From a virus: 64,000 nucleotides of DNA. The number at the start of each line of letters is the position of its first letter. Position 1 is the stretch's first letter. The stretch lies in IMG/VR virus record IMGVR_UViG_3300042861_001913. One strand, 5' to 3'. A program made the translations under genes and the position numbers. Of this stretch, positions 67 to 64,000 are shown in pieces. Below the pieces are notes generated by a model. That model was not told where the DNA came from. It saw only the letters and a list, made by a program, of their open reading frames with translations, and made no database searches.

Positions 67-405
67 TTATGAAGGTTCTACCAACCATATATTATCTACA
101 ACTATTGGTGTTTTTAAATGAATGGGAATGTCATCTTCGTCGTCCCATTCATAGTTAATTAAAGTAATATTGATATTATCATTCTCAATTACTATGTCAT
201 AATATCCATCTAAATCATCATTAATTGAACACGTTAACTTACTATCAATAATGCTGCAACAATTAAGTTTGATAAAACTATCATCATCTAACTGTAGTTT
301 AAATAAATCACAGTGTAATTCAACTCTATTGATTGATGTAAGAAAAATAAGTAACTTATCAACTACTTCTTTTAATTGTTTAATTATAGACATGGATATT
401 TCCAA
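67..405 (-). CDS. hypothetical acidic protein (112 aa; internal start MSIIKQ at 393 also possible)
   Basis: ORF track; packed in the leftward gene array; no recognisable motif. Confidence 0.5.
   Translation of the reverse strand: MEISMSIIKQLKEVVDKLLIFLTSINRVELHCDLFKLQLDDDSFIKLNCCSIIDSKLTCSINDDLDGYYDIVIENDNINITLINYEWDDEDDIPIHLKTPIVVDNIWLVEPS
338..347 (+). repeat. iterated 10-mer GTAAGAAAAA copy
   Basis: exact match, hand-located; antisense inside 67..405 (mRNA TTTTTCTTAC, codes IFLT). Confidence 0.9.
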
Positions 406-542
406 TTCATGTACTTAACGTAATCATCTTTAGTAACTTCAGTTGTTAATACTAAGTCACCTTCTGCAAATTCATTAATGTTATCTCCAGTAATAACACT
501 AATACTATAACTACCATCTTCGTAATCGTATCTAACGTACAT
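384..542 (-). CDS. small hypothetical protein (52 aa, MYVRYDYEDGSY...)
   Basis: hand-translated ATG ORF filling the gap between 606..1124 and 67..405; more plausible than track ORF 452..643, which runs through a terminator hairpin. Confidence 0.35.
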   Translation of the reverse strand: MYVRYDYEDGSYSISVITGDNINEFAEGDLVLTTEVTKDDYVKYMNWKYPCL

Positions 543-556
543 AAAGTTTCACCTAT

Positions 557-580
557 GAAAAAGCCCGCGATTAACGGGCT
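557..580 (-). terminator. rho-independent terminator-like hairpin
   Basis: stem AGCCCG 562-567 / CGGGCT 575-580, loop CGATTAA; plus-strand A5 at 557-561 gives a U-run 3' of the hairpin in the leftward transcript, just after the stop of 606..1124. Confidence 0.55.
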
Positions 581-605
581 AACTAATTTATGTGATTGAT
601 GAGAA

Positions 606-1124
606 CTACATCTCTTTTTTCTTACGCAATATAGGTTTTTCAATTAATTGTGTTTCGTAAATTAAGCTACTATCAATAATCTCAAGTCGTTTACCATTAA
701 CAGTAGCATTAATATCATATAACTTTAATACTGCATTACCATCACTAACACGTCCATTGAGTTTAATAGTTTGATAATTTCTACCATACTGTAATCTAAC
801 AATTAGATAGTTATGATTGAGATTCTCAAATATTACCCTACCAATAATGTTAACTACATCTAGTTCTACATTAGGTTGATCAATAACTCTACCAATTATA
901 GTGAATGATAGATATGGAGTTTGTGTATCACTCTGATTATAGATAGCTACATTATTAGTATTAGGTACTAAAATTAGTTCATTGCTTTCAGCCAAGTCTA
1001 GTTCATCATTATCTACTAGATATTGTACTTTTTGACTCAGTGTACATGGATAAGTGCTGCCAAATGCAGTTAGTGTACCGTTACAATAAGTCGCTGTCGT
1101 GATTACTCGTGCTTTCTGTTTCAT
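606..1124 (-). CDS. hypothetical protein with two IIGRV repeats (possible tandem OB-fold, speculative)
   Basis: ORF track; repeated FTIIGRVIDQP / VNIIGRVIFEN segments. Confidence 0.5.
   Translation of the reverse strand: MKQKARVITTATYCNGTLTAFGSTYPCTLSQKVQYLVDNDELDLAESNELILVPNTNNVAIYNQSDTQTPYLSFTIIGRVIDQPNVELDVVNIIGRVIFENLNHNYLIVRLQYGRNYQTIKLNGRVSDGNAVLKLYDINATVNGKRLEIIDSSLIYETQLIEKPILRKKKEM
615..625 (-). repeat. iterated motif GTAAGAAAAAA copy
   Basis: plus strand reads TTTTTTCTTAC; sense within 606..1124 (codes RKKKE at the C-terminus). Confidence 0.9.
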
Positions 1125-2868
1125 ATAGATTCAAGTGTTCCGGTTTAAATGTTCTATCGGGCATATTGTCTAGTGTAATCATGTGATAACTATTCTCCCT
1201 ATCTACTTTTCTAAATTCAATGTTGATTACTTTATTTATAATAGCAGGTTCTTCTATAACTTGTACAGTATCTCCTACTTTAAATTCACATGGGTTTAGT
1301 AATAACACAAGTTTATTACGTTCATCATTAGTTAACTTAGCTTGAACGTCTTTACGCTCGGTAATAGTAAGTGATTTAACCAGTTCTTTAACTGCATCAA
1401 CTCCATCATCAATAGCTGCAACTAACTTAACTTTAATTACTTCTAACTCACTTTGATATAACGCTGCTACACGTTCTTTCTCTTCAGCTTTATATTTCTT
1501 ATCTGCCTCAGCTTCTAGATATACAGTCATCCATGATTCTCCACTACTATCAATAGCATATATAAATGCTCTGTTATTACCGACATAACGTATGATACCT
1601 TCAGTAGATGTCATATCGTTGAGTCGCTTAACTACATCATTACGAGATGCGGCAGTTAGTTCGACTATATCATTAAGTGTTAACCCATAGACTTTAACCT
1701 CAGTATCCTCTACATCAACTTCATCACGCCATTGTTCCCATCGTTCAAATAATAATCGCAGTATTTGATTCTGTAATTCAATATTCTCAATTGATAATAC
1801 TGATTCCTTAAGTACCTTAAAGTACCAATAGTTAGCTTCATCTTTCTCGAATAATAAACTTAACTTAATAGGTTCACCATCACGAGGTATGGTGTGAACA
1901 TTAACAGTACCATCATCAGCAGCAAACATACTCCATACACCATCATTAGCGCGAGTTAAGGCACTAGATCCTGCCACACCATTCATCATACCAGTACGAT
2001 TATTAGCGTTAGCCATCTTAGTATTATGGTGCAGTAGAAGAATACTGAATCCATGTTCCTGAGCTAATGATTGTAACTTATAGAGCGCACTTGGTACTTC
2101 AGGACTATATTCTGTATAACCTGATACCTTGAGACTAGCCGCTAATGTATCAATAATAATAAGATTGATATTCTTCTCTTTAACTATATCTAGTATCTTA
2201 GTTTGATCTAATACAATATCTACATTACGAGTTACTATTAACTTCTCACTATTAATGAGTTCCTTATATAACTCAGGTTCTTCTAACTCAAGTAACTGTA
2301 AACCGTGATCATAGATACGATTTATAGTAGTACCATCAATAGGTTCTTCGTTCTCAATAAATAGAACATTGCCCGCAGTAGATTCTCTATTGAGAAATGG
2401 TGTACCTCTAGCTACAGCAACCGCCGCATGAGTAGCTAAATTAGTTTTCCCTACCTTTGGACTAGCAACTACCATTATGAGTTGACCAAATTTAAGTAGT
2501 CCCTTAAATATCCATTGAGTAGCTTTATCTTTACGTAAGTTAAGTAACTCAGCTAACGTATAGAGTTTGATCTCTTGTTGCTCTACGCTATATACTTGAA
2601 TTAACTGTTCAATGTCTTTCTTATCTGTTACAAACTTAGACATCCATTCAGTTAATTGAGCTTTAATTCTCTTCTGTTTAAGTAATGATTCAGAACTTGT
2701 CATTACAGCAATACGTTTACGAAATTCACTTTCTAATAGTGTATTAAAATCAGTTTCTATTTCATCTGGTGTTTTATCATAATCAGAACAATCTCGATGA
2801 ATTACCTCGTCTCTAAGTTGCGGTGTTAGTTCCAACAACATCTGTAAATAAATGTTGTAATCTTGCAT
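1081..2868 (-). CDS. RecA-fold replicative helicase-like ATPase (RepA/DnaB/AAA_25-like)
   Basis: Walker A VVASPKVGKTNLA, Walker B LIIIDTLAASL, LLLHHNTK sensor-like segment; directly downstream of the primase gene. Confidence 0.7.
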   Translation of the reverse strand: MQDYNIYLQMLLELTPQLRDEVIHRDCSDYDKTPDEIETDFNTLLESEFRKRIAVMTSSESLLKQKRIKAQLTEWMSKFVTDKKDIEQLIQVYSVEQQEIKLYTLAELLNLRKDKATQWIFKGLLKFGQLIMVVASPKVGKTNLATHAAVAVARGTPFLNRESTAGNVLFIENEEPIDGTTINRIYDHGLQLLELEEPELYKELINSEKLIVTRNVDIVLDQTKILDIVKEKNINLIIIDTLAASLKVSGYTEYSPEVPSALYKLQSLAQEHGFSILLLHHNTKMANANNRTGMMNGVAGSSALTRANDGVWSMFAADDGTVNVHTIPRDGEPIKLSLLFEKDEANYWYFKVLKESVLSIENIELQNQILRLLFERWEQWRDEVDVEDTEVKVYGLTLNDIVELTAASRNDVVKRLNDMTSTEGIIRYVGNNRAFIYAIDSSGESWMTVYLEAEADKKYKAEEKERVAALYQSELEVIKVKLVAAIDDGVDAVKELVKSLTITERKDVQAKLTNDERNKLVLLLNPCEFKVGDTVQVIEEPAIINKVINIEFRKVDRENSYHMITLDNMPDRTFKPEHLNLYETESTSNHDSDLL

Positions 2869-3646
2869 ATAGAAGTTCCTTTATATTATGTGTACCTACC
2901 AAATCAGCTATATCACCACCATCATCAGATGTAACATCATCAAGAGGTACAAGATAAAATGGTTTACCAAGTGACCATGCTACATATTTAATTAAGTCAG
3001 ATTTAACTTTACCGATTTTATCATTATCTGGAAGATAAATAATTCCAGTTATATGAGGATTACTTAACTGTGCGAATAGATAATTATTACTCCATCCAAA
3101 TGAAGGGGGTGATAGTGTTAACCATCCAGTAATTGAACTAACTATATCTGCACATTTCTCACCTTCAGCAATTAAAACACTACCATTAGTTATGTATCTT
3201 TGATTAAATAGACTTGTATTCTTACCTCTACCATATATCCATTGATTACCAACCTTATATTTAGGAAACAATTGCTTACTACCACCACTATCAACTCGTT
3301 CAACAATAAATTCATCAGAGTAAGAAAAATAAGTGATGCGGCGATCTCCTATTTGATATTGTTTAGCTAACTGATAATGGGGCGGACTAACCATGAGTGC
3401 ATCAAACTTAGTTATTGTAGGTTGTTTAATAACTAATGTTGATGGCGTAATTATGCCACTAGAACTAGATAAACCAAGAGCTGTTCTAATTTGAGCAGTT
3501 GAACAATTCTCAGTTACACATAAGTATGCCCAATCTAGTTTCTTATACTTTAATTTGCCACCACAACTAGGACACTTATAACATATCTCAGTTGCTAATT
3601 CACTTAATATTTCTAACTTACAATCAGCTAGATTAAATTTAGGCAT
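2813..3646 (-). CDS. DNA primase (Zn-ribbon + TOPRIM)
   Basis: CPSCGGKLKYKK...CVTENC zinc ribbon; TOPRIM glutamate IAEGEKCADI and YLPDNDKIGK (DxD). Confidence 0.65.
   Translation of the reverse strand: MPKFNLADCKLEILSELATEICYKCPSCGGKLKYKKLDWAYLCVTENCSTAQIRTALGLSSSSGIITPSTLVIKQPTITKFDALMVSPPHYQLAKQYQIGDRRITYFSYSDEFIVERVDSGGSKQLFPKYKVGNQWIYGRGKNTSLFNQRYITNGSVLIAEGEKCADIVSSITGWLTLSPPSFGWSNNYLFAQLSNPHITGIIYLPDNDKIGKVKSDLIKYVAWSLGKPFYLVPLDDVTSDDGGDIADLVGTHNIKELLYARLQHLFTDVVGTNTAT
3320..3329 (+). repeat. iterated 10-mer GTAAGAAAAA copy
   Basis: exact match; antisense in the primase gene (codes YFSY). Confidence 0.9.
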
Positions 3647-3854: not shown

Positions 3855-4059
3855 GATGAACTACTCCATGTATTGTTAATCTATGTTCTATATCACCTTT
3901 ATAATCAATTAGAGTTACTAGAACTTCATCTCCTTCAAGTACCATATCTATAATGTAGTTATTATATGATGAACTTAATTGAAATAAGTCATACGTCTCA
4001 TCTTTAATTAACTTAACTAACTTATCTAAATGTTCTTCTAATTCAGGTGTTAATTGCAT
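3841..4059 (-). CDS. hypothetical protein (72 aa from MQLTPELEEHL; track ORF extends to 4146)
   Basis: ATG at 4059 overlaps the Thg1-like stop (ATGCAATTAACACCTGA); the longer N-terminus would be antisense-nested in 4043..4771. Confidence 0.5.
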   Translation of the reverse strand: MQLTPELEEHLDKLVKLIKDETYDLFQLSSSYNNYIIDMVLEGDEVLVTLIDYKGDIEHRLTIHGVVHHAHK

Positions 4060-4771
4060 AATACTTCTCAATGTAATTTCTATCTTTAGTAAACTCAGGT
4101 ATTTCATTATCAATAATCCAACTACTTCTAGTTGTATCACCGACATTATAATAACTTTTAACTACACATCTACCACGTTTATTTGAAGTAGATAAATCAT
4201 TCCAGTTATAGCCTTGTTGAAAACATAACTCTTGTACTTCACTTGTTTTCTTACCTTGAAGTTGTTTATGTGGTATTAGAGATTGACCTAGTGTATTAAT
4301 TGAATTTCTAACTTGATCTTTCTGTCTCCAGATAAAGTAATTACATACATCAGATTCAGGTATATTAAAACTTCTACTATCAAAATAAGCACGTTTAATA
4401 TCACCATTCCAAATTAAGTTACTATTAACTGTAAATTCAACACTTGCAATAGCGGCACTTATTGATTCTATTTTAGATTGATTATAGTTAAACCATGCTT
4501 CACTAGTTATCTCTTTATAGTCATGTAATAGTAAACTTATTTCATCTGATTGAATATAAGCAACTTGTACATCTTGAATTTCCTCACATAACTTAATAGC
4601 TGTTAAATTCATAACATTAATTAAGTTAGCATCAAACTTATTCTTCAATGGTTTAGTGTATGTATGAAACGCTTTACCATCGAGACGTATGATAACAGGT
4701 GTACGTCTAGTTAAATAGTGAGTACATCTACTCTCGTAATAACCTTTAATTCTATCTCCAAGTGAATCCAT
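4043..4771 (-). CDS. Thg1-like tRNA 3'-5' nucleotidyltransferase (tRNA-His guanylyltransferase family)
   Basis: N-terminal RLDGKAFHTYTK and AYIQSDEISLL motifs typical of the Thg1/TLP catalytic core; length 242 aa fits. Confidence 0.75.
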   Translation of the reverse strand: MDSLGDRIKGYYESRCTHYLTRRTPVIIRLDGKAFHTYTKPLKNKFDANLINVMNLTAIKLCEEIQDVQVAYIQSDEISLLLHDYKEITSEAWFNYNQSKIESISAAIASVEFTVNSNLIWNGDIKRAYFDSRSFNIPESDVCNYFIWRQKDQVRNSINTLGQSLIPHKQLQGKKTSEVQELCFQQGYNWNDLSTSNKRGRCVVKSYYNVGDTTRSSWIIDNEIPEFTKDRNYIEKYYAINT

Positions 4772-4808: not shown

Positions 4809-5246
4809 TTAATTATTAAGTAACTTAGTTATCTCATCTAACTCTAATTGAGTTTTAAGATCCGCACTCATTAAGTTATTTAGACGTTTCTCTAATGTAG
4901 CCAACTCACTCTTCTTCGTACTGATACTTAATCTACTTAATCTAGTTTTAAGATCAATTGTCCATTCATTTAATGTGTAACCTAGATAAGTAAACTTATT
5001 ATCTAAACCTAATATTTCAGTTGCTCTAGTGTGCATAACTTCTTTATTAAGTAAGAAAACAAGTATGTCTAGTATTTGTTGTTCATTTGCAGTTTGAATA
5101 TTAACAATAGCATTAGCATCAACAAACCATTTAAATGCACAATTAGTAACCCAATTAGGTTTAACTTCAAGTGCCGCGATTTCAGCTTTCTTCTTATTTA
5201 CGATATCGAGTAATTCTTGAACTTTAATATCAGACATATGTTTCAC
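4809..5246 (-). CDS. hypothetical coiled-coil protein (145 aa)
   Basis: ORF track. Confidence 0.55.
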   Translation of the reverse strand: MKHMSDIKVQELLDIVNKKKAEIAALEVKPNWVTNCAFKWFVDANAIVNIQTANEQQILDILVFLLNKEVMHTRATEILGLDNKFTYLGYTLNEWTIDLKTRLSRLSISTKKSELATLEKRLNNLMSADLKTQLELDEITKLLNN

Positions 5247-6256
5247 TATCCTTGAATGTATTGTTTACCGTTAACTAAATGAACTACTAAATCAGAATAG
5301 TTCATTAATAAATCATCTTTAGTTACTGTTATGTATTTATCATGACAACTAACTTCAGTTGTGTTAACTGCATTGTTACTAACTGTAATTAACTTACAGT
5401 AACTTAACACAACGTAATCTGAAATTAATGGAAGATAACCCTGTAGATAATAACCATAGATATGACCATTAATCTCTTTATATACATAACGTTTATCATT
5501 AGTAGGAGTTAATTGAGTTAGAGATACATGACTTATAAGAGATATGTTTTTACTACAGTTCATTATCTCTAGTAAGTCAACATAGTTATCTACAGGTAAC
5601 TCACTTAACCTAACTGATAAACTAGTTAATCCAGTTAGAGGAACTAACTTATTATTATCATCAATAAACACATATCTCTTAACTAAGTCATAACTAGAAT
5701 CACACCAGTTGTAATCATACCAATCATACTTACCAAGATAAGTTAAGTTAACTTGCTTTTTAGTTTGATAGATACATCCAGGTACTAAATCCCGCACACT
5801 TATTTTCTTACCTTGAAGAGATGTGAATTGATTGGCAGCTTTATATTCTTCACAGTTAGCTGGTAGTAATACTAATTTCTTACCATCCCAAGCATAGATA
5901 AACTCACCTTCTAACTCTCGCTTATTGCAGTTAGTATTCATTAATATGAATAGTAGATTAGATGGTGTTATCTCAAATTCAAATCCTCTATCATCGTATA
6001 CTCGAATCATTGATCTACCACTTGAATAGTGTGACCAACTATCTCTAGTTACATCCTTATTTAGAATGAAACCAGATCGAGGAGTATTATCTAACTCTAA
6101 TGTAGGGATAGTCGTATCTATCCAACCATTAAATGACTTCTCTTTGCGTAACTTACCAGTAGCATCATAGTAGATGATATAAGCTAATTGCTTAGTGAAA
6201 CATTCACTTCTAACTTGAAATCCAACTTTAATCCGCGATGGTATGAATAGCTGCAT
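5246..6256 (-). CDS. hypothetical protein (336 aa)
   Basis: ORF track; start overlaps the preceding stop. Confidence 0.6.
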   Translation of the reverse strand: MQLFIPSRIKVGFQVRSECFTKQLAYIIYYDATGKLRKEKSFNGWIDTTIPTLELDNTPRSGFILNKDVTRDSWSHYSSGRSMIRVYDDRGFEFEITPSNLLFILMNTNCNKRELEGEFIYAWDGKKLVLLPANCEEYKAANQFTSLQGKKISVRDLVPGCIYQTKKQVNLTYLGKYDWYDYNWCDSSYDLVKRYVFIDDNNKLVPLTGLTSLSVRLSELPVDNYVDLLEIMNCSKNISLISHVSLTQLTPTNDKRYVYKEINGHIYGYYLQGYLPLISDYVVLSYCKLITVSNNAVNTTEVSCHDKYITVTKDDLLMNYSDLVVHLVNGKQYIQG

Positions 6257-6908
6257 TATTAACCTCTAAATAATTAACGGAATCTTTTAGACGTAAGAAA
6301 AAAGTAGAGATGTGGTTTATTACTTCATCTAAATCGGTAGATACACAACTGTCAATTGTATTTCCTATTTCGTCATCAATATCAGACATTGAATTAATAT
6401 ATAGTATGAATTTACGATTATCATGAAAATGATAAATTCGTAAATTTATAGATTTGAATGAAGTTTTAAATTGAATACAATTAAGTTCATTATTTTCAGT
6501 AAACCACGTTAAATTAAACGCACTATCTAACTTATCTTTAATTACAGTTACTTCATCATCAGTTATTTTATTTAACTTATCTCTAGTTAACTTAACTGTA
6601 GTTCTATGTGATTTGATTACACTAGCTAAATCATTTAGATATTCATCTACTCCATCTAAATCATGTTGTAGATCGTAATTAACTCGTCTTTCTAATAACT
6701 CAAATAAGTTATCACTTTTAAAGTAAGCTACATTATCTTCATCTACTTCAATACTAGTTGCGGGATTATGTCCTATCTCATTAATCCACATAACACCATT
6801 ATCTTCAATGGTTAATATTACTTTATCTCCAGGATAGAATGAGTAATCTACATCTTCACCTCGACATTCAGGTAAATTACGTAATACTATTGCATTGTAA
6901 ACTTGCAT
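6228..6908 (-). CDS. hypothetical protein (226 aa)
   Basis: ORF track. Confidence 0.55.
   Translation of the reverse strand: MQVYNAIVLRNLPECRGEDVDYSFYPGDKVILTIEDNGVMWINEIGHNPATSIEVDEDNVAYFKSDNLFELLERRVNYDLQHDLDGVDEYLNDLASVIKSHRTTVKLTRDKLNKITDDEVTVIKDKLDSAFNLTWFTENNELNCIQFKTSFKSINLRIYHFHDNRKFILYINSMSDIDDEIGNTIDSCVSTDLDEVINHISTFFLRLKDSVNYLEVNNAAIHTIAD
6293..6303 (+). repeat. iterated motif GTAAGAAAAAA copy
   Basis: exact match; antisense in 6228..6908 (codes FFLR). Confidence 0.9.
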
Positions 6909-40800: not shown

Positions 40801-40811
40801 GTTTATCTCTC

Positions 40812-50165: not shown

Positions 50166-50176
50166 GTAAGAAAAAA
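50166..50176 (+). repeat. iterated motif GTAAGAAAAAA copy (intergenic)
   Basis: exact; 14 nt upstream of ATG 50191, sense orientation. Confidence 0.9.
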
Positions 50177-55794: not shown

Positions 55795-56748
55795 ATGTTT
55801 CTAATGTCAGATACCGCGAACTTCAAGCGCACTAAAGTTAAATCATTTATTAGGAAAGGTAAAGTAGTTAGAAGTTACGATAGATCAATCAGAGATAGAA
55901 TACGTGATGTTGCTATAGGTGCAACTGGAACTGCATTATTAGGTGGTGCATATCTATTAGGTAAACGTAATGGTGCAAGATCATTAGATGAAGTTAAGTC
56001 ATTAATTAAGAACATTAAACCTGAAGTTACAGTTAATGTACCAACTCCAATCGTTAATGTAACTAATACTCCAGGTGTAGTTAGAGAGATAGTTAAAGAA
56101 GCATCTAGTAAGTCAAGTAAAGTTAATGAAGTAATTAACAATGCAATTAAATTAGATATAGTTAGAGTTAGATTACCATCTAAGGTTTATAACCTAAGTG
56201 AATCAACTATTAATAAAACTGCTAGTGAAGCTGCTAAGTTGACCGACGTTAAATTAGAGAGAACTATTAGTCTTATTAGTCGTAGATTACAGAAGTATAA
56301 CGTTAGTAATAATGAGTTAGTTAAACTAGATAGTTTGTTACTTAGTTTAAATAGATTTAAAACAGGTAAGTTTAATAAAGAAAGTGAACGTGAGTATTTA
56401 CGTAAACAGATAATTGAATATAGAGATTACTTTAAGTTACCTAAAGTAGATGTAAATGAACTTAATGTAGAATCAGTTGTAGATAGGGATTATGCAACTA
56501 AGTTAAAGAAGGTTATTACTAGAGATAAATCAATATTAGACATCTATCAAAGTGAGTTAACTAAACGTCGTGAAGTTGCAACTAATATAACTACTCCAAC
56601 TGATGCTGACATTGATAGACTTAGTGGTATGTTAGATGATTTTAGTAGTTCACGCAAACTAACATTATTTAATGACACTAAATCGCGCCGTTCCTTTTTT
56701 CTTACTGATACAGATGTTCCTAAATTAAGTAAACTATTAAATAGATAA
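55795..56748 (+). CDS. tag-family protein P4 (KVKSFIRKGKVVRSYDR tag + glycine zipper; 317 aa)
   Basis: MFLMSDTANFKRTKVKSFIRKGKVVRSYDRS...VAIGATGTALLGGAYLLG. Confidence 0.65.
   Translation: MFLMSDTANFKRTKVKSFIRKGKVVRSYDRSIRDRIRDVAIGATGTALLGGAYLLGKRNGARSLDEVKSLIKNIKPEVTVNVPTPIVNVTNTPGVVREIVKEASSKSSKVNEVINNAIKLDIVRVRLPSKVYNLSESTINKTASEAAKLTDVKLERTISLISRRLQKYNVSNNELVKLDSLLLSLNRFKTGKFNKESEREYLRKQIIEYRDYFKLPKVDVNELNVESVVDRDYATKLKKVITRDKSILDIYQSELTKRREVATNITTPTDADIDRLSGMLDDFSSSRKLTLFNDTKSRRSFFLTDTDVPKLSKLLNR
56695..56705 (-). repeat. iterated motif GTAAGAAAAAA copy
   Basis: plus strand TTTTTTCTTAC in 55795..56748 (FFLT). Confidence 0.9.
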
Positions 56749-56755
56749 TACAACT

Positions 56756-58546
56756 ATGATTATTGCACAATTCAAAGACTCAGATAACTCCGATAAGAAG
56801 AAATCTCAAGTAGGTAAGAAAATAGGTGGAGTTGCACTATTAGGTGGATCAGCAGCTATAGGAACTCAATCTATTAGAAGTGGTTTACCTAGAGCGTTAG
56901 GTGTACGTTTAGAACAACATGGTACTAGTCGTAAAGCTGCTGCAAATATTATTAAAGAGGGTTATTTAGATCCTGGTTATGGTGGAACTATGGAAGGTGT
57001 TACTTCTTCAATGAAGTTACCTAAAGAGTTCCTAGAACGTAGTAAAGGTTATACATTTCTAAGTGGTAAGAATCCAGATCATGTATTTTGGGATAAACGA
57101 AATGGATTAAGTTCTATAGGTGATGTAATAACTAGGAAAATACAGGTACTTGGTTATCGTGGTTCTAAAGCAGGTAAGTTAACTGAAAAAGATGTTGAAC
57201 GTGGTTCTAAATTTATTGGTGCAAGAGTAAATAGTATATTGAAACCATTTAAGAAGCAATTAGATGGAATGACTCCTGAACAAATGTTAGCTGAGATGAA
57301 GAAACAATCAGTAATAAGTGTTGATGTTAAGGCATTATATGATAGTTATGTAGCAGATCCAGAGAAACTTAAACGTGACTTAAAATCAATGAGACGTGAA
57401 ATTGAGAAGTTAGTTAAGAATACTCAAGATGTAGCTAAACGTGGATATAAAGATCCTAGTAGAATTAAATCAATTAGAAAAACTCAAGTTAAGTTTAATA
57501 AGTTATTTAATGATTATAAGGATGAATTTAAAGAATATCAAAAAGGTAGAAAAGATTTTAATACTTATGGTAGAGGTTTTGGTAAACGAAAAGGTAAAAC
57601 AAATTATAATAGTTTACTTAATAATTTTTTAGAACAAAAAGTTGATAGTGGTGATAAGAAAGCTGCTAGATTATTGAAGTTGAAAGATGGATTACAAAAT
57701 CAATTAAAAGCTCAAGAATTTAGTAAGAATCTAGGTCTTAGTGCTGGTTGGACTCAGAAGTTATTACAATCTCCATTATTAGGTGCTGCTGGAGTTGGTA
57801 AAACTGTTTATCTACCAGGAACAGATGAATACTTCAATGATACAAATAGATTTAAATACGATATAGATGATCCATTTGGTAATCCACTTAAATATAAAGA
57901 TTCATTCACATCAGAGAAAGGTGGATTTGGTGGTAATGCACTTAAAACTAAAGAGAAAGTTAGAGCATTTGGTAATAGATTTAGTGCAAGTAAATATCTA
58001 TTAGAAAAAGAAGGTAATGGTAACTTAATTAAAGGTGCATCTAAATTAATGGGTGCTAATAAAGGAAGAGTATTAGCTGGACTTGGAATACTTGGAGTTG
58101 GTGGAACTGCTGCTGGATTACTTGGAGCTAAAGGTATTCAACTATTAAAAGGTAAAGATGATAAGAAGAAAGTAGTAGTACAACCTAAAGTTATAGCAGT
58201 AGTTAAGAAACCTAAACAAGAGATAAGTAAGAAAAATGAGATACTTAAAGCATTACCTAGTTCTGTATTAACTAACGCAGCAATGGGAGGTTATCTTGGT
58301 TTAGCTGTAGGAACTGCATTAGGTATTAAGAATGGATTAGTTAAAGGTGTAGCATTAGGAGCATTAGCTGGTGGAGCATCTGGAATACAAGCTGGTTTAA
58401 ATAAATATAAAGATCGTAAAGAAACATTAGAAAACTATAAGTTACCAAGTCGTAAGATTAAAGTTAAATCATATGCTCGTAAAGGTAAACTAGTGCAAAC
58501 ATTTGAGAGACTTAATCCCTTCTATAATAAAGATAAACGTAAGTAA
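56756..58546 (+). CDS. tag-family protein P5 (596 aa; glycine zippers at both ends; tag KVKSYARKGKLVQTFER at the C-terminus)
   Basis: N-terminal KKIGGVALLGGSAAIG; C-terminal AGLGILGVGGTAAGLLGAKG, GGYLGLAVGTALG, GALAGGASG; tag encoded at 58460-58510. Confidence 0.65.
   Translation: MIIAQFKDSDNSDKKKSQVGKKIGGVALLGGSAAIGTQSIRSGLPRALGVRLEQHGTSRKAAANIIKEGYLDPGYGGTMEGVTSSMKLPKEFLERSKGYTFLSGKNPDHVFWDKRNGLSSIGDVITRKIQVLGYRGSKAGKLTEKDVERGSKFIGARVNSILKPFKKQLDGMTPEQMLAEMKKQSVISVDVKALYDSYVADPEKLKRDLKSMRREIEKLVKNTQDVAKRGYKDPSRIKSIRKTQVKFNKLFNDYKDEFKEYQKGRKDFNTYGRGFGKRKGKTNYNSLLNNFLEQKVDSGDKKAARLLKLKDGLQNQLKAQEFSKNLGLSAGWTQKLLQSPLLGAAGVGKTVYLPGTDEYFNDTNRFKYDIDDPFGNPLKYKDSFTSEKGGFGGNALKTKEKVRAFGNRFSASKYLLEKEGNGNLIKGASKLMGANKGRVLAGLGILGVGGTAAGLLGAKGIQLLKGKDDKKKVVVQPKVIAVVKKPKQEISKKNEILKALPSSVLTNAAMGGYLGLAVGTALGIKNGLVKGVALGALAGGASGIQAGLNKYKDRKETLENYKLPSRKIKVKSYARKGKLVQTFERLNPFYNKDKRK
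58227..58236 (+). repeat. iterated 10-mer GTAAGAAAAA copy
   Basis: exact; sense in 56756..58546 (SKKN). Confidence 0.9.
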
Positions 58547-58552
58547 ACTATT

Positions 58553-59530
58553 ATGGTAAAACAATCTAAAGTTAAGTCTTATGTTCGCAAAGGTAAAACT
58601 GTTAAATCTTATAACAGATCAATTAAAAATATCGTATTTGATGTAGGACGTGTTGCAGGGCTTGGAATTGGAGGACTTGCTGCAATTAAGTATGGTAAAC
58701 GTATACCTCTAAGTTGGGGTGATAAATTTACTCTGGGTGGTATAGCAGGTGCTTACTTAGGATCATTACCTTCTAACTTAATTAATAAGAATAACAAGAA
58801 AGCTAAACAACAATTAAAGAATATAGGATTAACTGTTGGTGGAATAGGTGGATTAGGATTAGCTACATTAGGTGGAATTAAAGGATATAAGTTTATTAAA
58901 GCCCGTAATACTAAATCATTAGTGTTATTTAATCCAAATGAATCATATCGTAATACTGTAGCTGCATTTAATATTAAAGCTAGAGAACAAGCTAAAACAG
59001 CCCCTAAATCGTTAGATGACATGAAAAGATATTATCAGAAGACATATTCTAATAAAGAATTAGTAGATGCTGAAGCTACTATTTTTTCTTACAATCTTAA
59101 ATCTAGCACTAGAGGTATACTTAAACCTCTTACTGGTGATGATGTATTAAATCTATATGATGAAACATTAACTCCTATAGCTAAACGAATAGTTATTGAT
59201 AGTGAGCGTGTAGCAGCAGTTGAAGGTAAAGATGGATTAAGAGATACTATTTATAAAGCAGTTACTAAGGATTTAGATATACCATTAAGTAAAGCAGAAC
59301 GTAGATATTTTGCTGGTGTTGCTAAAATGAATGATCCGGCAGTTAGAGAAGCTGAACGTAAGGTACTTAAAAAATCATTAGATGCTTATGCTAAAGCTAA
59401 TAATATTGACACAACTAGAGTTAATGGTAGTGTAGACTTAAATAAGATAATTAAGTCACTTAAAGAACGTGGTTTTACTGAATTAGATATTAAACAGATG
59501 ATAGACAAACACAATAACATTAAACTCTAA
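58553..59530 (+). CDS. tag-family protein P6 (KVKSYVRKGKTVKSYNR tag + glycine zippers; 325 aa)
   Basis: MVKQSKVKSYVRKGKTVKSYNRS...VAGLGIGGLAAIKYG...GGIGGLGLATLGGIKG. Confidence 0.65.
   Translation: MVKQSKVKSYVRKGKTVKSYNRSIKNIVFDVGRVAGLGIGGLAAIKYGKRIPLSWGDKFTLGGIAGAYLGSLPSNLINKNNKKAKQQLKNIGLTVGGIGGLGLATLGGIKGYKFIKARNTKSLVLFNPNESYRNTVAAFNIKAREQAKTAPKSLDDMKRYYQKTYSNKELVDAEATIFSYNLKSSTRGILKPLTGDDVLNLYDETLTPIAKRIVIDSERVAAVEGKDGLRDTIYKAVTKDLDIPLSKAERRYFAGVAKMNDPAVREAERKVLKKSLDAYAKANNIDTTRVNGSVDLNKIIKSLKERGFTELDIKQMIDKHNNIKL
59082..59092 (-). repeat. iterated motif GTAAGAAAAAA copy
   Basis: plus strand TTTTTTCTTAC in 58553..59530 (IFSY). Confidence 0.9.
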
Positions 59531-59537
59531 ATAAATT

Positions 59538-59915
59538 ATGTACATTTTATCTGACTATTCATTATCAACATTTGCAAGACGATTAGGTTCTAAAGATAAG
59601 AAGAAGAGAGAACGTCCTAGTATTAGACGTGGTATGTTAACTGGTGCTAAATGGGGTGCTGGGTTAGGTGTTGGTTTAACGGGTTTAACTATCGCTTCGG
59701 CATTAGCTCGTAAAGATGGTAGACAAGCTATGAGAGCAGCATTAAAAGCACAAGGTCGTAATCCTAGTCTTAGAAAAAATGCAGGTATGTTAGCTGGAGG
59801 TGCAGGATTAATTGCTGGAGTTAATGCACTAACTGGCGGTATTCAAGGTGGACTTATTGGAGGTGGAGTTAATGCGATTAGAAAATACCAATACGATAGG
59901 AATAACTCTAAATAA
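59538..59915 (+). CDS. tag-family protein P7 (FARRLGSKDKKKRER tag, Gly-rich; 125 aa)
   Basis: MYILSDYSLSTFARRLGSKDKKKRER...GAGLGVGLTGLTIA...GGAGLIAGVNALTGGIQGGLIGGG. Confidence 0.65.
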   Translation: MYILSDYSLSTFARRLGSKDKKKRERPSIRRGMLTGAKWGAGLGVGLTGLTIASALARKDGRQAMRAALKAQGRNPSLRKNAGMLAGGAGLIAGVNALTGGIQGGLIGGGVNAIRKYQYDRNNSK

Positions 59916-60646
59916 TGAAACAAGTTAAAGTTAAACAATCAGTTCGTAAAGGTAAGTTAGTACGTGGTTATAATCGTGTACTAACTAAAGTAACGGATAA
60001 GTTATTTAAACGAGATAAGGATGGTAAGAAGAAGTTAACCAATCTTAGTAAAGGATTAATAGGCGCGACTTCTATAGCAGGTTTATTAACTGCATTTAAA
60101 TATCGTCGCAACATAGCTCAGTTAAGTGAGAAGATTGTAAATAAGGTTAGTCCAACTGTTAAGCGCGTATTTAATAAAACTGCTAAAACTATAAGTCAAC
60201 CTATCACTAATACAACTGGTGATATTATGGCAGCTAGTGTAACTGGTGGAGCTATGACTAGAGACGCTAGACGTAAATACATACGCGAATTAGATAACTT
60301 ACCAAGTGAAGCAGTTAATATACAACCGTTTACTAAACGTGAAGATAGTTTAATTACTAGACGTATTAAACGTAATGATGCAACACTTAATAAACGAGTT
60401 AATAATGCACGTGGTAAACTAACTTCAGTTAACTATAATTCAGATAATGATCTATATTTAGCTATCAAGACTAATAAAGACTTTAGTTATAAGGGAGCTA
60501 GTAATATTGAAGATAGACGTGCAACTCGTAAAGCATTAGCTAAGAAACTTAAACAACAGTTAGGAGTTAATCCAGGAACTCCAAATCCAGCAACTCCAGT
60601 TAAACGTAAACGTGGTAGACCTAGAAAAGATAGGAGTAATCAATGA
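59915..60646 (+). CDS. tag-family protein P8 with C-terminal AT-hook (243 aa)
   Basis: MKQVKVKQSVRKGKLVRGYNR...GLIGATSIAGLL; C-terminal PVKRKRGRPRKDR (RGRP AT-hook core). Confidence 0.65.
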   Translation: MKQVKVKQSVRKGKLVRGYNRVLTKVTDKLFKRDKDGKKKLTNLSKGLIGATSIAGLLTAFKYRRNIAQLSEKIVNKVSPTVKRVFNKTAKTISQPITNTTGDIMAASVTGGAMTRDARRKYIRELDNLPSEAVNIQPFTKREDSLITRRIKRNDATLNKRVNNARGKLTSVNYNSDNDLYLAIKTNKDFSYKGASNIEDRRATRKALAKKLKQQLGVNPGTPNPATPVKRKRGRPRKDRSNQ

Positions 60647-61728
60647 AGAAACGAGTTAAAGTTAAATCATTTACACGTAAAGGTAGAATAGTTAAAGCTT
60701 ATGATAGATTGCAAGATGATAAGAAGTTACAACAATATAAGAATATAATTAAAGGTGTTAGTTTAATTGGTGGTAGTTTTGCTGCAATTAAAAATGCAGA
60801 TAAGTTATATAAGTTATTTAGGTTAGCTAAAATACAATCTAAAGTAAACAAGATAAATATTAAGCCGTTAAATGTAGCTAATGTTAAATCACCAATAGAG
60901 AAGTTAAATATACTAAACACCTTTAAAATATTTAAAGGTGAATCAACTAACACTATTAAACTAGTAACTAAAGATGGAGTTAATTACATCTATAAAGAAA
61001 GTAGAGATAACTTAGATTCTAATATATTAAGTAATTTAAGTATAGGAAGTTATCCTCATGGTAATGAACAAGCTACAGAAGCACTAATATCATCTATTGG
61101 AAACAAACTTAAAATACCTGTACAAGAAACTGAAATTATAGCAGCGAATCAGATATTTGATGGTAAAAAAGCTGGTTTACCTGGAAGTCTACATAAGATA
61201 GTTGACGGTGTACCAGCATCTGAATTATTTAAAGACATGAATTTTGTTGTAGCTAATCCAGTATCTAAATCTAAATACTCTAAGGTAATTGATAATATAT
61301 TACTAAATAAAGATACTGCTAAAATCGGCGCACTTGATATATTTGTTGGTAATGCTGATAGAAATGCTGGTAACTTATTTTATAACATTAGTAATGGAGC
61401 ATTCACAGCAATAGATAACGGTAGTGCATATACATTACCGTTTGATTATGATTCATTAACTAAGATAATTAAAAGTAAATCGCGCAAACTAAATGAAACT
61501 AAACGACGTAATCTAAATCAATTAAGAGATACATTAACTGAGTTACATAACAATTACACGCCAGAACAACTTGTTAATGAATACGATAGAAATTTCCTTA
61601 AAGCTCTAGATGGTGTAGATGATGATGTATTTAAACAAGCATTAAAATCGCGCGATTCTAGAATTAAGAATATCTATTATAATCACGCCAAGTCTAAAGA
61701 GTTTCTAGATTATTTAAATACTATTTAG
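60643..61728 (+). CDS. tag-family protein P9 with a PI3/PI4-kinase-like (atypical protein kinase) catalytic region
   Basis: MKKRVKVKSFTRKGRIVKAYDR...; C-terminal half GALDIFVGNADRNAGNLFYN...FTAIDNGSA resembles the GDRHxxN catalytic loop plus IDxG metal-binding motif. Confidence 0.55.
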   Translation: MKKRVKVKSFTRKGRIVKAYDRLQDDKKLQQYKNIIKGVSLIGGSFAAIKNADKLYKLFRLAKIQSKVNKINIKPLNVANVKSPIEKLNILNTFKIFKGESTNTIKLVTKDGVNYIYKESRDNLDSNILSNLSIGSYPHGNEQATEALISSIGNKLKIPVQETEIIAANQIFDGKKAGLPGSLHKIVDGVPASELFKDMNFVVANPVSKSKYSKVIDNILLNKDTAKIGALDIFVGNADRNAGNLFYNISNGAFTAIDNGSAYTLPFDYDSLTKIIKSKSRKLNETKRRNLNQLRDTLTELHNNYTPEQLVNEYDRNFLKALDGVDDDVFKQALKSRDSRIKNIYYNHAKSKEFLDYLNTI

Positions 61729-62785
61729 ATCGCCGCGATTCATCAATAGCCATTTTGAGTCTATTTTTAGCCTTATTAAGTTCTTGTACAGCAGAATCCA
61801 TCGCTTGTTTTTTCTTACTTTCTGGAATTTTCGTATTAAATCGAAGTTGTTTTAATTTACGTTGTCTATCTTTAATGTGAGCAATTTCATCAGCTACATT
61901 AATTGGAGCTTTATTAACCTTCCTTATTTGTAATGGTTCATAACCAATAAACTGTTTTACTTGGTTAACAATATTCTTATCATCAACATACTCCGATATA
62001 GTGTGTTGATTTTTTCCTTTAATCCATTTAATGTCAGGGTAAGGAAAATACTTTGATGTTAAATCCCAATCATCTTTACTTCCAAAACTAAGTGTATTAC
62101 CGGGGTTAACTTTATTTATGCCTAAGTAAGTACCAGCATAGTTAATTTGTTTAACTTTACTAACGTTACCTCCCATTTCTTTAAAGATATTAATAGCTTC
62201 AGAATTAATAAAACTACCAGAACTAAATCCATGTAAAACTAAATCTTTATCGGGATATGTTTTAGCGTAAGAATACATATCAGCCGCTAACTCTCTAGCT
62301 GTTGGATTATAACCATCTTTAATAAATGGTTTAGCCCATGCAATAGATCCATTCTTTAATAACTCTAATTTATTCTTATAGTTTCTACCTAGATACTTCA
62401 CATTACTATTAGATGTGTTAACTGGTATTATGTGTTCTTGCGTTTTATCAAATAAGTTTCGTACTTTATGTGCAAAGCTAATTGATTGACGTGCTTCTAG
62501 ATTACTTGCATTAAATCCACCTGTTGTAAAGTGAACTCGTTTTACTTTATCTGATAGTTTAACAGGTGTTATATTATTAGCTAATTTAAATGCTTCTTTA
62601 GCTGATGTTTTATATCCATTAATATAACGTCGTTTTAGTAATAGGTAACTAGCAGCAGTTAGTCCAAGTGTACTTGCAGTAACTATAGTTGCTTTAACTA
62701 ATGCACTGTCTTGTTTACGTTGGTACTGTTTAACTAGTTTACCTTTCCTTACATACGATTTAACTTTAACGTCTTGTTTAACCAT
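61721..62785 (-). CDS. tag-family protein P10 with an alpha/beta-hydrolase (lipase/esterase-like) domain, leftward
   Basis: MVKQDVKVKSYVRKGKLVKQYQRK...ASTLGLTAASYLL; nucleophile elbow LVLHGFSSGSF (GxSxG). Confidence 0.6.
   Translation of the reverse strand: MVKQDVKVKSYVRKGKLVKQYQRKQDSALVKATIVTASTLGLTAASYLLLKRRYINGYKTSAKEAFKLANNITPVKLSDKVKRVHFTTGGFNASNLEARQSISFAHKVRNLFDKTQEHIIPVNTSNSNVKYLGRNYKNKLELLKNGSIAWAKPFIKDGYNPTARELAADMYSYAKTYPDKDLVLHGFSSGSFINSEAINIFKEMGGNVSKVKQINYAGTYLGINKVNPGNTLSFGSKDDWDLTSKYFPYPDIKWIKGKNQHTISEYVDDKNIVNQVKQFIGYEPLQIRKVNKAPINVADEIAHIKDRQRKLKQLRFNTKIPESKKKQAMDSAVQELNKAKNRLKMAIDESRRSK
61808..61818 (-). repeat. iterated motif GTAAGAAAAAA copy
   Basis: plus strand TTTTTTCTTAC; sense in 61721..62785 (SKKK). 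Confidence 0.9.
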
Positions 62786-62997
62786 TAGATGTCACTTAGA
62801 AAATAGATTATTTTTTTATTTAATGCTCGACTAAAGTTGCCTAGTCTATCTGCTGCTACAGAATACTTACCTGTCTCTATCTTACTTAATACACTTCTCT
62901 GCATAAATAGTTCCTTAGCTAACTGTTCCTGAGTTAAATTAGCTTCTTGTCTAGCTCGTTTAATTTTGTTACCGATTAACTTACGTTTATCTATCAT
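62785..62997 (-). CDS. XRE-family HTH transcriptional regulator (70 aa)
   Basis: IKRARQEANLTQEQLAKELFMQRSVLSKIETGK; stop overlaps the start of 61721..62785 (TAATG). Confidence 0.7.
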   Translation of the reverse strand: MIDKRKLIGNKIKRARQEANLTQEQLAKELFMQRSVLSKIETGKYSVAADRLGNFSRALNKKIIYFLSDI

Positions 62998-63089
62998 GTG
63001 CTTATTAAGAACAATAACCCACTATGTCTATTATATTCACTATTATGAAACATATAGAGCTAGTAGGAGTTAAATCACAATAAACAAGT

Positions 63090-64000
63090 ATGAATAAATT
63101 AGCTTATTTTTCAGCTTCTAATTTAGAAACAATAAGTGAGTCACCTAATAAGGTAATTAAGAAAGGATTAGTCCTAATTGAAGGTACTCATGTTGACTCT
63201 AAGAAGAGAACACATACATTTAGTCCAGCTAGAATACGTGAGATAGTTAGTAACTCTAATGCGTTATTTGCTAAGACTCGCATTCCAGTATTGATGGATC
63301 ATAAGAAGGAGCAATCTAGTGTTATTGGAGATGTAGAATCTCAATTTCAATGCACTACTATTAATGAAGATAATTTTCCTGGTGCTGATGATAAGGGATT
63401 AACTGGTAAGTTAGGTATCTTTGTTAATCAAATCGCAATTAAAAGTGGTGAAGCAATACGTCAGTTAAATGAAGGATTATTAAACACACTTAGTCCTGGC
63501 ATTGATGTAGTAAGTAATGCAATACGTGAAATTAGTGCAACACCTAATCCCGCCATTGCTAATCTAAGTCTATTTAAACGTGCCGAATTTGAATCAGATG
63601 CACTTACATTTGACGACTTAGAGAACAGTGATGATATGTTAGATAAGATTCGTAATCAATACGAAGATTTAACTAATAAGTTATGGGAACTAACTGAAAC
63701 TATTCAGACTATTGATGAACAAGCACTTAACGGTCAGAGTCGTGAAGAAGTACAGTATCAAGCTATTAATGATTTCGCCACTCGTTTTCTTACGTTGATT
63801 GGATCTGGTGAGGAAGAACAAGATCCTATGATGCAGGAAGCTAATGGTGGATCTTATCCGAACCAAGTGCAAGGTTATCAAGCTCAAGGTCAACAACAGA
63901 ATTGGGGTATGCCTCCTAATGATCCTAACGCTCGTTATGCTAGTGGATTACCTATTGCAGCATTTAGTATGGCTGAGATGGAAGCAGTTAATCGTGCTGA
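63090..64000 (+). CDS. prohead protease (HK97/S78-like) fused to a scaffold-like region, 3' end outside the window
   Basis: hand-translated open frame from ATG 63090 to the window end (not in the track because no stop is reached); IPVLMDHKKEQSSVIGDV resembles the protease His motif; later coiled-coil and Q/G/N-rich region. Confidence 0.55.
   Translation, partial: MNKLAYFSASNLETISESPNKVIKKGLVLIEGTHVDSKKRTHTFSPARIREIVSNSNALFAKTRIPVLMDHKKEQSSVIGDVESQFQCTTINEDNFPGADDKGLTGKLGIFVNQIAIKSGEAIRQLNEGLLNTLSPGIDVVSNAIREISATPNPAIANLSLFKRAEFESDALTFDDLENSDDMLDKIRNQYEDLTNKLWELTETIQTIDEQALNGQSREEVQYQAINDFATRFLTLIGSGEEEQDPMMQEANGGSYPNQVQGYQAQGQQQNWGMPPNDPNARYASGLPIAAFSMAEMEAVNRA

Follow-up and report, generated by a model that had tools for sequence, protein, structure and literature searches.

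A selected nine-nucleotide word iterated on both strands of an uncultured phage genome, its variants in distant lineages and its possible role in replication

We analyzed a 64,000-nt stretch of DNA (hereafter the window) from the virus record IMGVR_UViG_3300042861_001913, in which a 10-mer, GTAAGAAAAA, recurs on both strands within and between genes. The window has a composition of 68% A+T and belongs to a large, previously undescribed phage, probably a freshwater cyanophage, with a genome of about 122 kb, for which megablast and tblastn searches against deposited phages recovered no close relative (best TerL match, 35%). Gene content was examined over 80 kb, namely the window together with flanks of 7.2 and 8.8 kb. 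As listed in Table 1, the window encodes proteins of replication and recombination (primase, helicase, exonuclease, SSB-like protein and AAA_24 ATPase), two KilA-N proteins with nuclease-type domains and an HU-like protein, and it contains a GC-richer island. Other candidate DNA binders encoded by the phage are Bro-N, Rha and XRE-type helix-turn-helix (HTH) proteins, and a GIY-YIG protein is encoded just outside the window. A DNA polymerase gene was looked for in these 80 kb and not found, and Rfam and tRNA scans of the window gave no matches. The open reading frame (ORF) at 2813-3646 had no family match; it was called a primase because of its zinc ribbon and TOPRIM motifs and the structural matches of its AlphaFold (AF2) model (pLDDT 83), for which the top Foldseek matches were T7 gp4 and the DnaG primases of Aquifex, B. 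subtilis, S. aureus and E. coli (probabilities 0.99-1.0, TM-scores 0.36-0.43).

An exact count gave 28 copies of GTAAGAAAAA in the window (13 on the plus and 15 on the minus strand), as reported in a preliminary description of the sequence, whose rough estimate of at most one copy by chance also agreed with dinucleotide-preserving shuffles (0.45 +/- 0.74 copies, maximum 3). The informative core proved to be the 9-mer GTAAGAAAA, which is present in 47 copies (21 plus, 26 minus), or about one per 1.4 kb with both strands counted, against 0.83 expected under a Markov-3 and 5.6 under a Markov-5 model. An unbiased k-mer scan placed it at the head of the over-represented words at every k from 8 to 11. 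A purine usually precedes the 9-mer, further A follows (the A run varies from 3 to 10 among copies), and then comes a weak y-A-R-G-T tail. The 27 single-mismatch variants occurred together about 30 times, with about 26 expected; since they stay at the chance level, the word is all-or-none and sharply defined. With regard to the individual copies, the only wrong coordinate in the earlier list was 34729, a typing error for 34719, and the minus-strand positions that differ by 1-2 nt from ours (615, 26302, 42325, 47082 and others) reflect where the longer T run begins and are no error. The 16 copies that had been listed with four A were all correct, but three further ones (5051, 11717 and 13733, all on the plus strand) had been overlooked.

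In a non-overlapping ORF set, 22 copies are sense, 18 antisense and 7 intergenic, which is consistent with the 10 sense, 12 antisense and 6 intergenic 10-mers given previously. The word is thus mostly intragenic (40 of 47 copies, 85%) without any orientation bias relative to transcription, and the intergenic copies are mildly enriched (7 versus 4.4 expected). Such a distribution could in principle be a functionless by-product of amino-acid or codon bias (xKK, FFL), of A-tract mutational bias or of a selfish drive such as biased gene conversion, especially as 17 of the 22 sense copies read NGT-AAG-AAA (x-K-K, a tendency that had already been recognized; the other 5 read GTA-AGA-AAA) in the lysine-rich proteome of an A+T-rich (68%) genome. 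However, synonymous-codon shuffling within each gene, which keeps the proteins and the codon pool of the gene, yielded 12.7 +/- 2.3 copies of GTAAGAAAA (maximum 20, n=300), a figure that contains the 7 unshuffled intergenic copies, so that coding bias cannot explain the 47 copies observed. The antisense copies are spread over all three reading phases (5/5/8), in line with the earlier remark that no single favored peptide accounts for them. One-mismatch variants are not enriched, a GC-rich relative (L057, see below) has a GC-rich word, and the copies are conserved at synonymous-rate background. The by-product explanation is therefore largely refuted by the codon shuffle, the conservation and the mismatch counts, and we regard it as very improbable. 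In this phage lineage, to which it is specific, GTAAGAAAA(A) is a recognition word under selection.

Conservation was assessed in close relatives, which comprised 20 IMG/VR contigs 85-99% identical to the window. All covered sites were kept in them except one, at 59084, where the segment is replaced in two relatives (L014 and L020). Differences were seen in 0.9% of the aligned cells of the motif, compared with 3.5% in the background and 2.6% in the 30-nt flanks, which agrees with the functional role suspected in the preliminary description. Those parts of the relatives that have no homology to the window contained 36 copies in 50 kb (0.72 per kb), close to the 0.80 copies per kb of the aligned parts, and the 7.2 and 8.8 kb on either side of the window carry the word at a similar density. 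These comparisons show that the word is under purifying selection and is a functional signal.

The word is absent from the GC-richer island, and, as noted earlier, no 9-mer copy lies between 34719 and 40813 (about 4 expected for the island; one 8-mer, GTAAGAAAc, is present at 36730). The island gene 37240-38868 encodes a 542-aa protein with two FGE-sulfatase domains, whose nearest cellular homologs belong to Dolichospermum and Aphanizomenon (62% identity over the full length, up to 84% per domain), and the only HIP1 copy of the window (GCGATCGC) is found inside the island, at 38557. The island looks like a recent acquisition from the host, which, on the basis of these FGE-sulfatase homologs and the HIP1 copy, is probably a bloom-forming Nostocales cyanobacterium (Aphanizomenon/Dolichospermum), a single-gene inference. 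The lack of 9-mer copies in the island shows that acquired DNA arrives without the word.

Several cellular signals resemble the word. The uptake signal sequences (USS) and DNA uptake sequences (DUS) of Pasteurellaceae and Neisseria are dense, located on both strands and within genes, and evenly spaced. Together with Chi and HIP1, they are genome-wide iterated 8-12-mers that occur at roughly 0.2-1 per kb and are tolerated in genes, and the density, strand balance, genic occurrence and even spacing of the word would fit a host signal of this kind (a DNA uptake sequence, host Chi or architectural motif) that the phage carries passively. However, these are features of cellular genomes (and Chi is polar), whereas 56 kb of probable-host Aphanizomenon/Dolichospermum DNA (the host being assigned from a single gene) contained 2 copies of GTAAGAAAA versus about 41 at phage density. 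The top over-represented word in that DNA is HIP1, which is nearly absent from the phage and, in the window, lies only in the island that lacks the word. Since the word is nearly absent from the probable host DNA and missing from the island, an uptake-, Chi- or HIP1-like signal of the host is ruled out, and passive carriage of a host signal is extremely improbable. Two observations were made in passing in the probable host DNA: a Type ISP restriction-modification enzyme (N6_Mtase + Type_ISP_C) is encoded at L040 17427-20618, and the host locus L042 contains an 18-copy repeat that includes CCCCGCAAGGGGAC. The island also encodes a well-conserved phrog_1735 protein (34269-36254).

Strand usage of the word is far from random in this phage. 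First, consecutive copies in the window tend to alternate in orientation (36 runs versus 24.2 expected, P = 4e-4), and same-strand spacing is regular (coefficients of variation (CV) 0.54 and 0.65), whereas the spacing of all sites is random (CV 0.90). Second, the 80-kb composite of the same phage had 44 orientation runs versus 30.3 expected (P = 1.5e-4), and only 7 same-strand gaps were shorter than 1 kb, compared with 15.1 expected (P = 5e-4). The same-strand gaps of the composite had medians of 2.1-2.6 kb and a maximum of about 7.5 kb, whereas opposite-strand copies approach each other to 31 bp in this phage and to 27-63 bp in several lineages. Third, the 85% identical relative L020, which has about half of its sites in common with the window, showed the same alternation (P = 0.004). 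Thus, the reading of the word is orientation-specific in this phage. The strand switch expected of a single bidirectional origin was not seen, as the orientations are interleaved across the 80 kb.

The word also occurs, unchanged or modified, in much more distant lineages. Among the lineages compared by TerL, GTAAGAAAA itself was found in L023 (49% identity, 0.81 per kb) and L024 (47%, 8 copies), other words were found in L021 (a contig in a Scytonema assembly; 53%, tGGTAGAAAAAt) and L026 (53%, aG(a/g)TAGAAAAA at 1.7 per kb), and L022 (52%) lacked a clear word; nothing comparable was seen at 13 loci that had been selected for remote TerL similarity (<35%). Among the lineages compared by primase, GTAAGAAAA was present in L046 (the same phage as L023; 44% identity) and L051 (42%), G(a/g)TAGAAAAA in L052 (the same genome as L026; 39%; TAGAAAAA 16 times on each strand), and GTCCGAAATA in L053 and L054 (contigs of 111 and 127 kb; 33%), with 16 and 11 strand-balanced copies and at most 0.08 expected. 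A GC-rich genome, L057 (GC 56%), has 13 copies of CCCCCGAGTAC (7 plus, 6 minus); its primase-helicase fusion is 26% identical over 68% of the query. Strand balance was also seen in L026/L052 (27 plus and 29 minus when summed). Hence all full-length primase homologs (at least 33% identity; L046, L051, L052, L053 and L054) came with an enriched word, except that L044 is ambiguous, because many sense copies of its candidate fourth variant, GGAAGAAAA, are ribosome-binding sites. Where similarity to the primase was only partial and confined to TOPRIM, no word was found (L056 and L058; 26% and 28%) or a word was present on one strand only (L055; 22%). In the latter record (IMGVR_UViG_3300033979_000465), AGATGTCAAT occurs 7 times and resembles one-strand nick or regulatory motifs.

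An ungapped alignment placed the words in one register, in which a G-A-A-A core follows a lineage-specific tetranucleotide (GTAA, GrTA, GGwA, GTCC or CCCC, the last with a modified core), giving forms such as GTAA-GAAA, GrTA-GAAA, GTCC-GAAATA and CCCC-GAGTAC; the word of L057 fits this register less well. Within the terminase gene, sites are found at aa 255 in the window, aa 132/146/298 in L023, aa 146 in L024 and aa 406 in L021, so that at long range the density is conserved while the site positions turn over. A scan of genome-assembly contigs retrieved a single relative, contig BAACAP010000247 of Scytonema sp. NUACC26 (155.8 kb; L021/L025). In view of its XisA/XisC-type recombinase and of six HIP1 copies within 21 kb, it may be an integrated or plasmid-like relative of the phage group.

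Word identity appears to follow the replication module rather than the structural module, although by small margins and in one pair of genomes. When the window was compared with L046 (same word) and L052 (variant word), identities were 39% and 36% for the helicase, 44% and 39% for the primase, 47% and 41% for the exonuclease, and 36% and 30% for SSB, whereas the trend was reversed for TerL (49% versus 53%) and KilA-N (32% versus 38%). Replication primases start at short template sites, such as 5'-(G/T)2GTC-3' plus flanks for T7 gp4 and d(CTA), d(TTA) or d(CTG) for DnaG. Firmicute DnaG-type primases start at the middle base of template d(CTA) or d(TTA), with specificity derived from the zinc-binding domain (PMC2978363), and the complements of the words described here, 5'-TTTTC-TTA-C-3' and 5'-TTTTT-CTA-yC-3', contain TTA or CTA. 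AtTwinkle recognizes a multi-nucleotide element in which two 'cryptic' bases are needed (site 5'-(G/C)GGA-3'; PMC5737085). In phage T7, about 14-26 of 177 pentanucleotide sites are used, the choice depends on a context of about 15 nt that is read partly via the zinc-binding domain, and Okazaki fragments are 1-6 kb, with none shorter than 1 kb (PMC12839067). The word shares several properties with primase sites: this phage has such a primase in an operon with a helicase, the signal would be strand-specific and needed on both strands, its conserved core and lineage-variable flank resemble copied and cryptic nucleotides, and the same-strand spacing in this phage is at Okazaki scale.

On this basis, we tentatively suggest that the word could be a preferred initiation signal for the primase or replisome at Okazaki-scale spacing; the primase as reader and priming as function, both inferred, are our best guess, and a replication signal had been among the candidate roles named in the preliminary description. 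The word would be read on single-stranded DNA, in one orientation, by a replication-module protein of the phage, most likely the zinc-ribbon/TOPRIM primase together with the helicase encoded next to it. The preferred priming signal would be the template strand 5'-TTTT(T)CTTAC-3', the conserved GAAA(A) would be the copied part at which the primer starts, and the lineage tetranucleotide (GTAA, GrTA, GTCC or CCCC) would serve as the 'cryptic' recognition element. Signals on both strands, about every 2-3 kb per strand, would then set the starts of Okazaki fragments for forks moving either way. It is possible, if slightly more doubtful, that each lineage of these large cyanophage-like phages has a private 'replication word' of about 10 nt that its own primase-helicase requires, which would restrict lagging-strand priming to its own DNA through genome-wide, co-evolved starts, coding sequence in all frames and in either orientation included, and newly acquired DNA would lack the word until adapted.

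A number of observations weigh against a priming signal. First, the differences on which the tracking of the replication module is based amount to 3-6 points in a single genome pair, the primase zinc-binding domain is 47-50% identical in same-word lineages versus 52-59% in L052 and L044, and no primase homolog was recovered for L021, L022 and L024 (21 kb around TerL each). Second, in the independent lineages (about 20 kb each) the spacing effect was weak or absent (Stouffer z = 1.5; 36 short same-strand gaps versus about 40 expected), so that orientation-specific spacing is established for this phage only, and a balanced orientation everywhere needs forks in both directions at every locus. Third, known primase sites span 3-5 nt (about 15 nt if weak effects of context are counted) and are not visibly over-represented as exact words. 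We know of no primase that requires, or has shaped, a 9-10-nt genomic word, and of no report of private 10-mers as primase sites that differ between related phages. Finally, the window, L023 and L024 share a sense copy immediately before the KilA-N gene, which is an exception to positional turnover, and intergenic DNA of the GTCCGAAATA lineages contains head-to-head pairs of the extended word (AGTCCGAAATAATAAG) that fold into hairpins whose stems measure about 20 bp (folding energy, dG, -13 to -33 kcal/mol for 61-76-nt windows in L053/L054); no hairpins were found at copies in the GTAAGAAAA clade of this phage. These pairs and the KilA-N-upstream copy suggest duplex-level or regulatory use.

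Such use would be expected if the word were the binding site of a phage protein that recognizes duplex DNA and acts locally at many genomic positions (a stoperator-type repressor, a Bro-N/Rha/KilA-N regulator or a nucleoid organizer). In cluster A mycobacteriophages such as L5 and TipsytheTRex, one phage protein binds an asymmetric 13-mer that recurs more than 20 times in some 50 kb of genome, and these operators/stoperators resemble the word in size, asymmetry, density (0.5-1.7 per kb here) and lineage variants (PMC9283540). Many candidate proteins are encoded (two KilA-N, Bro-N, Rha, XRE-type HTH and HU), and the sense copy before the KilA-N gene, the palindromes formed by head-to-head copies in L053 and L054 and the intergenic excess would all fit. 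However, stoperators occupy promoters or short gaps between genes and share the orientation of transcription, whereas 85% of the copies here are intragenic and their orientation is independent of transcription. In addition, a protein blind to orientation would not yield same-strand avoidance, and the identities of KilA-N and HU do not track the word. We therefore consider a duplex-binding site unlikely.

Three individual candidates for the reader were rejected. The HU-like protein, which the preliminary description had proposed as the binder, is present in the motif-less L022 and is 36-43% identical in lineages with a different word or none (in the same-word L023 and L024, HU is too diverged for tblastn detection); the AT-hook protein proposed alongside it was not supported. 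The KilA-N/DUF559 nuclease is absent from L020, which keeps the word. For the 302-aa KilA-N + PD-(D/E)xK-like protein, whose nuclease-like domain has the invariant residues E159, D176 and E189-L-K191, KilA-N domain identity contradicts word identity (38% between the window and L020, with the same word, versus 65% between the window and L021, with a different word), and the C-terminal domains of the window and L020 proteins are 97% identical. The balance of sense and antisense copies makes the earlier idea of a transcription signal unlikely, and this balance and the lack of a hairpin in this clade led us to reject a promoter or terminator role. The four copies described just before start codons (22612, 33268, 40812 and 50166) are indeed present, 7-15 nt upstream.

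Site-specific nicking, another earlier suggestion, is a less likely reading, being disfavored by strand usage. In this case, a phage nickase of the T5, phiKMV or tf type would introduce single-strand nicks late in infection, here on both strands. Nicking is the one meaning that experiments have established for an asymmetric 9-mer enriched across a clade in and outside phage genes, and the known motifs (TACT/RTGMC or WACTRTGAC, tf-like; CGACN5CCTA/CTCCGG, phiKMV-like; R/GCGCRGG, T5-like) are similar to the word in being about 9 nt long, asymmetric, clade-specific, located in and outside genes in either orientation and sharply defined, with few one-mismatch variants, as in tf. Phage tf has 14 TACT/RTGMC sites and Rembedalsseter 13 WACTRTGAC sites, the motif is enriched in 61 phages, and these motifs have no known function and are found in clade phages that share little nucleotide identity (PMC3517423, PMC11780129). 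Proteins with nuclease domains are encoded beside the terminase (KilA-N + PD-(D/E)xK-like and KilA-N + DUF559), and GIY-YIG outside the window. On the other hand, the described motifs are on one strand, unevenly placed toward one genome end and at about 0.3 per kb, whereas the word is strand-balanced at 0.7-1.7 per kb. The constraint here lies on same-strand neighbors, and avoidance of staggered double-strand breaks predicts the opposite; opposite-strand copies come within 27-63 bp of each other in several lineages and form pairs in L053 and L054. Neither the KilA-N/DUF559 protein, which is missing from L020 although the word is kept, nor the KilA-N domain tracks the word, and the contig ends of the metagenome showed no pile-up at sites (a weak proxy for breaks). 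Since the known motifs are one-strand and since same-strand rather than opposite-strand neighbors are constrained, we judge nicking to be distinctly unlikely.

Orientation-specific reading would also be predicted if the word were a Chi-like 'self' mark for a translocating helicase-nuclease, which would shield phage DNA or promote its recombination and break down the unmarked DNA of the host. Both orientations would then be needed and close same-strand copies would be redundant, as in this phage; the word is near-absent from probable host DNA, and a recombination module (exonuclease, AAA_24 and SSB) is present and tracked by the word. However, the 80 kb examined, out of about 122 kb, contained no helicase-nuclease of the RecBCD, AddAB or AdnAB type. 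Known Chi sequences are 5-8 nt, enriched in the host and co-oriented with replication, none of which holds here, and a Chi-like orientation bias that switches with replication direction was not observed, the orientations being interleaved over 80 kb. A self mark thus appears quite improbable.

With regard to novelty, a literature search on the word returned primers only, in agreement with the earlier statement that no phage signal of this sequence was described, and no account was found of phage genomes in which a strand-balanced, lineage-variable 9-10-mer recurs at 0.5-1.7 per kb. The word may be viewed as a new form of a known feature, the clade-specific iterated phage motif, and possibly also of primase recognition. 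Should it serve the replisome or primase, it would represent the first primase preference that is long and strict enough to show as a genome-wide word, and this preference would diversify between related phages. It would also offer a sequence-only readout of Okazaki starts, of replication self/non-self and of the age of acquired DNA in uncultured phages. If it is a nick or dispersed binding site instead, those classes would gain a dense version that uses both strands. In each of these cases, widespread uncultured phages (roughly 65-127 kb) associated with bloom-forming Nostocales can be recognized by the word, which is a simple diagnostic marker.

Table 1. Genes and other features of the window, the 47 copies of the 9-mer (9-mer coordinates; sites that extend to the 10-mer are marked) and the hairpin pairs of L053 and L054.
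Feature	Position	Strand	Remark
Replicative helicase	1081-2868	-	AAA_25/DnaB_C-like; RepA/DnaB-like; overlaps end of primase gene
Zn-ribbon + TOPRIM primase	2813-3646	-	277 aa; invariant CPxC..C..C, EGEK and PDxD motifs; predicted fold
Exonuclease (phrog_298)	7389-8201	-	replication/recombination module
SSB-like protein	8566-8985	-	weak Pfam match
AAA_24 (Sak4-like) ATPase	13555-14385	-	
AAA+/MoxR-like and VWA-like run, gene	21457-22602		
AAA+/MoxR-like and VWA-like run, gene	24339-25514		
AAA+/MoxR-like and VWA-like run, gene	25524-26669		
AAA+/MoxR-like and VWA-like run, gene	26666-27823		
Motif-free GC-richer island	34728-40812		GC up to 41%
HU-like protein	49587-49889	-	
KilA-N + DUF559 (Vsr-fold) nuclease	50191-50745		
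KilA-N + PD-(D/E)xK-like protein	50738-51646	+	302 aa; conserved
Peptide-bearing gene	55795-56748		
Peptide-bearing gene	56756-58546		
Peptide-bearing gene	58553-59530		
Peptide-bearing gene	59915-60646		
Peptide-bearing gene	60643-61728		
Peptide-bearing gene	61721-62785		
Site (10-mer)	338-346	+	antisense in gene 67-405
Site (10-mer)	617-625	-	sense
Site (10-mer)	3320-3328	+	antisense inside primase gene
Site (9-mer)	4246-4254	-	sense in Thg1-like gene
Site (9-mer)	5051-5059	+	antisense
Site (9-mer)	5803-5811	-	sense
Site (10-mer)	6293-6301	+	antisense
Site (9-mer)	7955-7963	-	sense in exonuclease gene
Site (10-mer)	8850-8858	-	sense in SSB-like gene
Site (10-mer)	10174-10182	+	between minus-strand genes; only doubtful plus-strand ORF there
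Site (9-mer)	11445-11453	-	sense in Pnkp gene
Site (9-mer)	11717-11725	+	antisense in Pnkp gene
Site (10-mer)	11883-11891	-	sense in Pnkp gene
Site (9-mer)	13733-13741	+	antisense; 31 bp from opposite-strand copy at 13764
Site (10-mer)	13764-13772	-	sense in AAA_24 gene
Site (9-mer)	16324-16332	+	antisense
Site (9-mer)	17655-17663	-	
Site (9-mer)	18910-18918	+	antisense
Site (9-mer)	19746-19754	-	sense
Site (10-mer)	19968-19976	+	antisense
Site (10-mer)	22613-22621	-	intergenic, 9 nt upstream of start of gene 21457-22602
Site (10-mer)	25845-25853	+	antisense
Site (10-mer)	26304-26312	-	sense
Site (9-mer)	27433-27441	-	sense
Site (10-mer)	27990-27998	+	antisense
Site (9-mer)	31953-31961	+	intergenic
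Site (9-mer)	32413-32421	-	sense
Site (9-mer)	33128-33136	-	sense
Site (10-mer)	33269-33277	-	intergenic, 7 nt upstream of start of gene 32913-33260
Site (10-mer)	34719-34727	+	antisense; last copy before motif-free island
Site (10-mer)	40813-40821	-	intergenic, 11 nt upstream of start of gene 40417-40800; first copy after island
Site	41676-41684	+	intergenic; longest A run, GTAAG then ten A (41676-41690)
Site (10-mer)	42328-42336	-	sense
Site (10-mer)	46907-46915	+	intergenic; intact in 12/12 relatives
Site (10-mer)	47084-47092	-	sense
Site (10-mer)	48345-48353	-	antisense in TerL (aa 255); intact in 20/20 relatives; elsewhere in distant TerLs
Site (10-mer)	50166-50174	+	intergenic, upstream of KilA-N/DUF559 gene; equivalent KilA-N-upstream position conserved in L023, L024
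Site (10-mer)	51519-51527	+	sense
Site (10-mer)	52412-52420	-	antisense
Site (9-mer)	53696-53704	+	sense
Site (9-mer)	54073-54081	-	antisense
Site (10-mer)	56697-56705	-	antisense
Site (9-mer)	56814-56822	+	sense
Site (10-mer)	58227-58235	+	sense
Site (10-mer)	59084-59092	-	antisense; only site lost in relatives (segment replaced in L014, L020)
Site (10-mer)	61810-61818	-	sense
Site (9-mer)	63785-63793	-	
Hairpin pair, L053	6587-6636		
Hairpin pair, L053	15771-15815		
Hairpin pair, L053	16591-16636		
Hairpin pair, L053	20131-20168		
Hairpin pair, L054	4405-4449		
Hairpin pair, L054	16097-16131		

Some additional features of the window were also observed. The gene for the KilA-N/DUF559 nuclease is missing from the 85% identical relative (L020 11900-12958) and in this respect behaves as a mobile endonuclease of the homing type would, and in the adjacent gene for the 302-aa protein the N-terminal domain is swapped between the window and this relative (38% versus 97% identity for the two halves). 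A Thg1-like tRNA-His guanylyltransferase (4043-4771) and a polynucleotide kinase-phosphatase (Pnkp) with a T4 Rnl1-type RNA ligase (11179-13094) probably form a tRNA-repair set, which perhaps counters a host anticodon nuclease. Between 21457 and 27823, AAA+/MoxR-like ATPases are paired in a run with VWA-like proteins. Finally, six neighboring proteins (55795-62785) have the peptide KVK(S/Q)(Y/F)xRKG(K/R)xVxxYxR in common, which five carry at residues 5-14 and the sixth close to its C-terminus, and this peptide could be a targeting or processing signal for virion-internal or ejected proteins.

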